A stretch of 64,000 bases of DNA, taken from positions 2,016,001 to 2,080,000 of the forward strand of contig CM000155.2 in assembly GCA_000004695.1 (NCBI GenBank), written 5' to 3'. The notes under the pieces were generated by a model, which did no database searches, had not been told where the DNA came from, and saw nothing but the letters and a program-made list of their open reading frames with translations. Source of the stretch: Dictyostelium discoideum (taxonomy: Eukaryota). Each line of letters opens with the position of its first letter. Within the stretch, counting starts at the first letter, position 1. Positions 25,095-26,289 of this stretch are shown here, piece by piece. The position numbers and the translations under genes are program-made.

Positions 25095-25707
25095 AAAAAA
25101 AGATTTTCTTCAAAAACTAAATCAGATTTGCAAAATATTATTTTCACTACCAGTGCAAAATGTACACTCGTAAAAAAAAAAAAAAAAAAAAAAAAAAAAG
25201 AAAAAAATTAAAAATAAATAAATTTCCAAAAATATCTCCTTAATAAAACGGTTTTATTTATTTTTATTTATATTTTGTTTTTTTTTTTTTTTCTTCTATA
25301 CACTTTATTTAAAAAAAAAGATATTAATAAAATTTTTAAAATTATTATCAATATTTGGATCTTTTTTTTTTTTATGCAAAGATTTTAAAAAAAAGTAAAC
25401 CCCCCAATAATTTTATTTTTTTTTTTTATTCTTTATGGGGGTAACACTTTTTTTCTGAAAAATTTTTCTTTCTTTCAAAATATCTTTCCCTTGCTGCTTG
25501 AATTAAACTTTCGTCATTCCTCCTTGTATTATACCTTTCATATTCATCTTTTTTATCATCATCTTTTTTAATTCCATATTGGGCTTGATAATAATTTGTT
25601 GTTTTTGGTTTAGTAAATTTATTATTGGTATCATAATTATTATTATTATTATTATATTTAGAAGTTGATTGGGATGTTGTTGAATTTATTGATGGTTTTT
25701 TATCTTG

Positions 25708-26289
25708 TTAAGTTCCATTTTCATGAATTGAAAAATATAAATTTCTGTGAAATGAAAAAAAATCTTTTTTCTTTGTTTGTTCATTAATTTCTTCTTTTTC
25801 TTGTTTTTCTTTTTCTAATCTATCATTTTCTAATTTCTTTTTATAGGCTTGAGTTATGTAAATTTCTTTATCTTTAAATTTATCACCTTCTAATTCTCTT
25901 TCTTTTAAAATTTGATTCTCTTTAACTTTTTCAAATTGTTTTTTTTTTAAATTTGATTGTTCCATTAACGATGATATATATTTAGATTCTCTATTATTTA
26001 ATTGTTGTTGTTGTTTAATTTGTAATTTTTTATCTTTTTCTTTTTTAATTGAATCAAATACTGAATCATATTCAAATGCTGTTGGATCTTCTAATATTGC
26101 TTCGTTATGTTGTCTCTCAACTTTTGTATTTAATTTTTGTTGTTGTTGTTGTTTTTGTTTTATATAATCAATATATCCATCTTTATTATTATTATCATCA
26201 TCTTCTTTAAATTCTTCTTCGTCATCATCTTGAAAAACATTTTTTTTTGGTTTTGGTAATTGTAAACCATACTTTTTTTCACCACTCAT
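25708..26289 (-). CDS. NSRP1/CCDC55-like (DUF2040) nuclear speckle splicing regulator homolog, 193 aa as annotated and possibly longer
   Basis: The N-terminus MSGEKKYGLQLPKPKK..FQDDDEEE matches the conserved NSRP1 start (KQYGLILP). It is followed by a K/E-rich coiled-coil region. The ORF ends at a TAA at ~25708-25710, but the same frame stays open for ~94 more codons down to ~25427 (see findings). Confidence 0.6.
   Translation of the reverse strand: MSGEKKYGLQLPKPKKNVFQDDDEEEFKEDDDNNNKDGYIDYIKQKQQQQQKLNTKVERQHNEAILEDPTAFEYDSVFDSIKKEKDKKLQIKQQQQLNNRESKYISSLMEQSNLKKKQFEKVKENQILKERELEGDKFKDKEIYITQAYKKKLENDRLEKEKQEKEEINEQTKKKDFFSFHRNLYFSIHENGT

Follow-up and report, generated by a model that had tools for sequence, protein, structure and literature searches.

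The described systems closest to the locus reported here are the NSRP1/CCDC55 protein family (nuclear speckle splicing regulatory protein 1, PF09745), genes whose stop codons are read through by the ribosome, and the discrepancies already known from the reference sequence of Dictyostelium discoideum AX4. The N-terminal K-YGLQ motif is invariant in the NSRP1/CCDC55 family, and a second motif (RRNDE..I.AARERY..RK) aligns at the C-terminus of family members, with a consensus (R-Y-x-R-R-N, ARERY-x-x-RK) that was common to dictyostelid and plant proteins in our alignment. Termination in eukaryotes is weak where the stop codon is followed by C, and UAA is generally the least leaky of the stop codons. 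Resequencing of AX4 mutation-accumulation lines revealed 1,916 shared differences from the reference, which were put down to reference errors or clone differences, and the mutation rate of D. discoideum was placed at about 2.9e-11 per site per generation (Saxer et al. 2012, PMC3466296). A literature search returned no paper mentioning both NSRP1 and Dictyostelium and no published list of reference discrepancies naming the site described below, and nothing on this gene was seen in the titles and first abstract lines of papers mentioning Dictyostelium, readthrough, and stop codons.

In the window (the whole stretch of 64,000 nucleotides of D. discoideum DNA that was analyzed), an ATG at 26289..26287 on the minus strand opens an ORF of 193 sense codons (26289..25711). 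Translation confirmed the original prediction that this ORF (25708..26289, minus strand) ends at an in-frame TAA, which occupies 25708..25710 and is codon 194. Beyond the TAA the same frame remains open, as had been predicted, for exactly 93 sense codons (25707..25429, minus strand) rather than about 94, and it closes at a TAA at 25428..25426 rather than at about 25427; the predicted downstream translation was correct except for one misread residue, the sequence being ERKKNFSEKK and not ERKKIFSEKK. With the TAA counted as codon 194, the full-length NSRP1-like coding region (25429..26289, minus strand) is a single exon of 287 codons, collinear with intact ORFs in four related assemblies (L004, L003, L005, and L006; see below). 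The label NSRP1-like was borne out by a Pfam profile search, in which the NSRP1_N domain (PF09745) was matched by residues 58-175 (25765..26118, minus strand) over profile positions 2-118 of 121 with 102.7 bits (E = 1.7e-29), against a gathering cut-off of 25. The K-YGLQ motif is likewise present in the window protein.

The neighboring gene is dcd1B, whose first exon forms an ORF in the window that matches the beginning of XP_629465.1/Q54CS6 from D. discoideum AX4 without a difference; the window thus appears to be reference-type sequence of the AX4 lineage from the dcd1B/pex6 neighborhood. A PEX6-like gene with the PEX6 fourth domain and two AAA domains lies at 18271..21983 (minus strand) and is split into ORFs of 811 and 331 amino acids. 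Two Logan contigs, L001 and L002 (SRR26869268 and SRR28564543), are 99.84% identical to 18245..19495, with two scattered single-nucleotide polymorphisms, a pattern which indicates another strain of the same species. The NSRP1-like gene lies beyond the reach of these contigs and of a further one from another strain (L007).

We assessed whether the frame downstream of the TAA is coding sequence. The original prediction held that a stop-free stretch of this length was very unlikely to arise by chance, and our calculations bear this out: the probability of 93 open codons was about 1.2e-4 at local base composition and about 1.7e-5 at intergenic composition, and only 19 of 200,000 shuffles of the 279 nucleotides remained open. 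The GC content of the downstream stretch (0.19-0.27) is in keeping with that of the upstream coding part (0.19-0.23) and not with that of the flanking intergenic DNA (0.08-0.16). The family C-terminal motif, RRNDESLIQAARERYFERK, is encoded in the downstream part, that is, after the TAA in the window, and this conserved motif (RRNDESLIQAARERYFERKKN) was located at 25462..25524 (minus strand) by BLASTP of the downstream peptide and an alignment of seq­uences from seven members; in that seven-sequence alignment, which includes plants, A266, R269, and R273 are invariant. When the downstream peptide was used alone as a BLASTP query, it matched the C-termini of a Heterostelium protein (E = 6e-7) and a Cavenderia protein (E = 1e-5). 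When the two parts were joined into a 286-amino-acid query, dictyostelid proteins covered 94-95% of it in a homology search, among them Heterostelium PPL_07029 (272 amino acids, 95%) and a 252-amino-acid EukProt entry. The 92-amino-acid downstream peptide alone gave no match at E <= 0.001 among 1.84 billion protein representatives, as is to be expected when a motif of about 20 residues is searched in so large a database.

Selection on the two parts was compared between the intact orthologues. The ratio dN/dS downstream was about 0.03 (L004 versus L003 and L005; 6 to 7 synonymous changes versus 1 nonsynonymous change), and that of the upstream part was 0.15-0.22; within the clade, then, the C-terminal third is strongly constrained. 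Judged from these sequence comparisons, the 93 codons at 25429..25707 (minus strand) are real coding sequence of the same gene and make up the true C-terminal third of its protein. A Thr/Ser run just after codon 194 (25660..25690) varies in length, reading TTS in the window and in L004 and containing up to 10 Thr in L003 and L005, and D. citrinum L006 has a long T(n)S(n) run at the same site; this is ordinary triplet-repeat polymorphism in the linker that joins the NSRP1_N domain to the C-terminal motif.

The same neighborhood was retrieved through members of the dcd1B cluster from four GenBank assemblies, three of them labelled D. discoideum (L004, GCA_054883475.1; L003, GCA_054859385.1; and L005, GCA_054859355.1) and one D. 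citrinum (L006, GCA_054859325.1). In all four, the P450 gene and dcd1B flank one uninterrupted gene, with intact ORFs of 287 (L004), 296 (L003), 294 (L005), and 281 (L006) codons; the gene lies at 4675..5565 in L003, 2680..3564 in L005, and 2692..3537 in L006. The first base of the interrupting codon (25710) is T in gene sense in the window and A in L004, L003, and L005, where the codon reads AAA (Lys); in D. citrinum, which is one codon shorter at this point, Lys is aligned with it. The three D. discoideum genes stop at the same position as the window frame does (TAA, 25426..25428, minus strand), which is the real stop codon of the gene. A check in independent strains, which the original prediction had called for, thus found the stop at codon 194 absent from all four related assemblies. 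Orthologues ending at the equivalent position had been named as part of what would make the downstream frame a chance or decayed remnant, and none was seen: all four run through, as do the Heterostelium and Cavenderia proteins.

The four assemblies appear to share one project and one pipeline and are in that respect not fully independent of each other, while being independent of the window. Their most probable source is PRJNA1300491 (Holland et al., PNAS 2025, PMC12745789), which comprises de novo assemblies from Nanopore and Illumina reads and covers AX2-214, D. citrinum, and tropical isolates of D. discoideum, some of which may be cryptic species (PMC12745789). The D. purpureum dcd1 locus, tried as an outgroup from an independent project, was not syntenic and carried no NSRP1-like sequence. 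No protein closer than 42% identity was returned by the homology search, although orthologues of about 93-97% identity exist in the assemblies, and an exact look-up in the protein collection had no record of the 193-amino-acid protein, of its variants with Q, E, K, S, L, or Y at codon 194, or of the 296-amino-acid L003 orthologue. The NSRP1-like proteins of D. discoideum and D. citrinum seem to be missing from protein collections although they are called genes on the retrieved contigs, and the neighboring dcd1B proteins of the same assemblies are present; the lack of close homology matches thus says nothing about the biology. Neither version of the site had an exact DNA match in the metagenome and prokaryote-genome collections scanned.

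L004 aligns to window positions 19368..28961 at 99.4% identity. No difference between the two was found in 19368..22115, 22136..25084, 25760..26694, and 27021..28961, which together make up about 8.5 kb of the 9.6 kb aligned, and the differences are confined to four tight clusters, three of substitutions and one of homopolymer length. Wild strains of D. discoideum differ by about 0.3% (bioRxiv 10.1101/2025.10.22.684067), and against that figure kilobases without a difference indicate that L004 is isogenic with the window. By its identity to the window, L004 is probably the laboratory strain AX2-214. Such agreement is expected of AX2-214, which goes back to the same wild ancestor as AX4.

The substitutions between window and L004 number 43, with 17 at 25357..25759, 23 at 26698..27020, and 3 at 22116..22135; they occupy 5 of 24 bins of 400 nucleotides, and none of 100,000 random placements was as concentrated. 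With L003 and L005, which are about 8% diverged, used to polarize the changes, 39 of the 43 proved private to the window, including all 17 of the cluster that contains the TAA, and at only one of these 17 sites (25683) does D. citrinum have the base of the window. This cluster is a putative low-quality stretch; 13 of its changes fall in coding sequence, the other 4 in the 3' flank. The second one, in which 21 of the 23 substitutions are private to the window, lies in AT-rich intergenic DNA between the NSRP1-like gene and the P450 gene and probably has the same technical origin. Both large clusters grow denser toward higher coordinates and cease abruptly, at 25759 and 27020, a shape that resembles the decaying tail of a plus-strand read and may reflect one.

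Smaller features were seen in the same alignment. The window breaks up, at 26936..27020, what is an A run (in minus-strand sense) in L004, L003, and L005, and its homopolymer run at 25085..25092 is 8 nucleotides longer than in those three assemblies. The third cluster of substitutions (22116..22135) lies near a cupin (JmjC-like) gene. L004 has a 6-nucleotide deletion at window positions 26809..26814, of which 4 positions, together with a substitution at 26822, are private to L004 (the window agreeing with L003 and L005); L004 accordingly has small errors of its own or real differences in AT-rich intergenic DNA.

Within the cluster at 25357..25759, the private changes in the coding region are 4 synonymous, 8 missense, and 1 nonsense. 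Besides the TAA itself, five of them lie upstream of it (25715..25759) and seven downstream; since they straddle the stop, they are not decay that followed a nonsense mutation. One of the missense changes gives DFFSF in the window where L004, L003, and L005 have DFSSF, and the third position is Ser or Gly (D-x-S/G-x-F) in all six aligned homologues, from dictyostelids to plants. In gene sense and with L004 taken as ancestral, the 17 changes are A to T (4), A to C (5), A to G (2), C to T (4), T to G (1), and T to A (1), so that 11 of 17 are transversions, mostly at A. The private changes appear blind to coding constraint and look like unselected noise, which, with counts this small, is supportive only.

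The reading we favor, with a probability of roughly 80%, is that the interruption stems from base-call errors where the reference assembly was poorly covered. A T would have been recorded for A at 25710 (gene sense), the true codon 194 being AAA (Lys), and the TAA would be one of 17 miscalls over about 400 nucleotides (25357..25759) in a stretch probably covered only by poor-quality sequence. The real gene would then be an ordinary single-exon NSRP1/CCDC55 homologue of 287 codons, whose product has an NSRP1_N coiled-coil domain at the N-terminus and a short, conserved, basic motif at the C-terminus. Sequencing error is favored because the stop and its 16 neighbors are private to the window, tightly clustered, and unselected in appearance, and because the ORF is intact in the otherwise identical L004; from this pattern in the sequence we infer a technical rather than a biological cause for the cluster. 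At the mutation rate given above, moreover, it is implausible that two sublines of one isolate should differ by 43 real substitutions in 9.6 kb. Of the three causes that the original prediction had put forward, a sequencing or assembly error is favored, except that it would not be confined to one codon and would extend over 17 private substitutions; a strain-specific nonsense mutation is less likely, and readthrough fails as an evolved feature.

The rival that survives best, though we consider it rather unlikely, is that the TAA and the changes around it are real in the AX3/AX4 lineage, perhaps from a localized burst of mutation, and that the gene is a nascent pseudogene or encodes a 193-amino-acid protein with the NSRP1_N domain but without the C-terminal motif. 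The differences are indeed private to the lineage of the window, and the whole NSRP1_N domain precedes the stop, so that a truncated protein might keep some function. AX3 is said to have been isolated after treatment with nitrosoguanidine, a mutagen that gives closely linked multiple mutations, mainly G:C to A:T changes. The spectrum seen here is unlike that of nitrosoguanidine, since only 4 of the 17 changes are C to T in gene sense and 11 are transversions. Similar clusters are found in adjoining noncoding DNA (26698..27020 and 22116..22135) with no L004 difference between them, and patchy sequence quality is a simpler account of this than three bursts. The spontaneous rate is in turn far too low (PMC3466296). 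As weak evidence against this rival, the 193-amino-acid product was not on record in any public assembly queried, although a neighboring ORF turned up in 8 read sets. Gene conversion from a second copy found no support within the window, where a search for the 3' part of the gene gave only simple-repeat matches and no other copy.

It is very improbable that the comparison assemblies are wrong and the TAA of the window true, the Nanopore consensus having miscalled the same bases in four genomes. The four assemblies seemingly come from one pipeline, at the differing sites they mostly have A (gene sense) in an A-rich region, and the five differences private to L004, which include part of the 6-nucleotide deletion, mean that L004 is not error-free. 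The same miscalls would nevertheless be needed independently in genomes that are 8-15% diverged, and they would have to restore an open frame, a Ser conserved in the family, and a dN/dS of 0.03. Several of the sites lie outside homopolymers (for example, ATGGAACTTAAC versus ATGAAACTAAAC), Illumina reads were also used for the assemblies (PMC12745789), and the Heterostelium, Cavenderia, and plant proteins, which are independent, are continuous through the region.

Programmed stop-codon readthrough, in which ribosomes would decode the UAA at some frequency, aided by the C that follows it (UAA-CAA), to give short (193-amino-acid) and long (287-amino-acid) isoforms of a putative splicing regulator, is equally hard to credit. 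In its favor, an open frame with a conserved motif follows the stop, CAA is the next codon, and the protein sequence of the extension is under purifying selection; in L004, L003, and L005, however, that extension is a plain part of the ORF. A sense codon stands at the position of the stop in all four related assemblies, and as a conserved mechanism programmed readthrough is refuted by this lack of conservation. In addition, UAA-CAA-GAU fits only the first triplet of the CAR-YYA/CAR-NBA consensus, GAU failing at the second, and the RNA after the stop is essentially unstructured: the fold of 107 nucleotides across the stop (6 before and 98 after) had a minimum free energy of -0.4 kcal/mol (z-score +1.5), no better than that of 194 of 200 shuffles. 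The long and short isoforms that had been proposed thus found no support as an evolved feature, with the stop missing from four of four assemblies and no structure following it. If the TAA is real in AX4, there may be some incidental leakiness at UAA-C, which would not be a programmed feature.

That an unusual intron or RNA editing takes out or recodes the TAA in the mRNA is scarcely conceivable, with nothing in its favor except the open downstream frame: the orthologues are collinear without a gap at the site, the GC content is that of coding sequence, there is no GT in gene sense between 25886 and 25534 (the nearest one upstream being at 25886), and the smallest in-frame GT..AG removal bracketing the TAA, of 183 nucleotides (25886..25704), is rejected because it would delete the end of the NSRP1_N domain, including family-invariant residues, so that the original statement that no GT..AG pair brackets the TAA was correct in substance.

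Should the call of base errors in the reference be right, the gene model becomes a 287-amino-acid NSRP1 homologue with Lys194 and not a 193-amino-acid protein or a pseudogene, and 25357..25759 and 26698..27020 are to be regarded as unreliable in reference-type sequence. Genome scans should take from this the caution that, in a Sanger-era reference, a gene that looks interrupted while its frame stays open beyond the stop can owe this to an error cluster, the telltale being neighboring differences that are dense, private to one assembly, and blind to coding constraints. In the unlikely event that the TAA and its cluster are real in AX4, the most widely used Dictyostelium reference strain would have a truncated NSRP1 homologue without the C-terminal motif, possibly rescued in part by a leaky UAA-C. 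AX4 and AX2 would then differ, unnoticed, in the gene of a putative splicing regulator, the difference originating from a localized burst that AX2 lacks; it would be relevant to comparisons of splicing or development between the two strains, yet it would be an ordinary nonsense mutation.

Compared with the known systems, the window protein shares with NSRP1/CCDC55 the NSRP1_N domain, K-YGLQ, and the C-terminal motif, and its length class (about 250-340 amino acids) fits the other dictyostelid proteins, whereas animal proteins are much longer; the interruption by TAA is found in the window alone. With readthrough genes, such as the TMV replicase (UAG-CAA-UUA) and the metazoan UGA-CUAG cases, the locus has in common an in-frame stop, a conserved coding-like extension, and, as in TMV, CAA as the next codon, but it differs in that the stop is not conserved in orthologues, is a UAA, has a second triplet off the consensus, and is followed by no structure. 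Identity between AX4 and AX2 is 99.5% over the tgrBC locus (Holland et al. 2025, PMC12745789), close to the 99.4% between the window and L004. As with the known AX4 reference discrepancies (PMC3466296), the differences at this locus are private to reference-type sequence, and they are absent from an isogenic laboratory strain and from wild relatives; they are dense (about 4% over 400 nucleotides) and clustered, and read mapping that allows 0 to 1 mismatch per 31-nucleotide read would largely miss stretches as dense as these.
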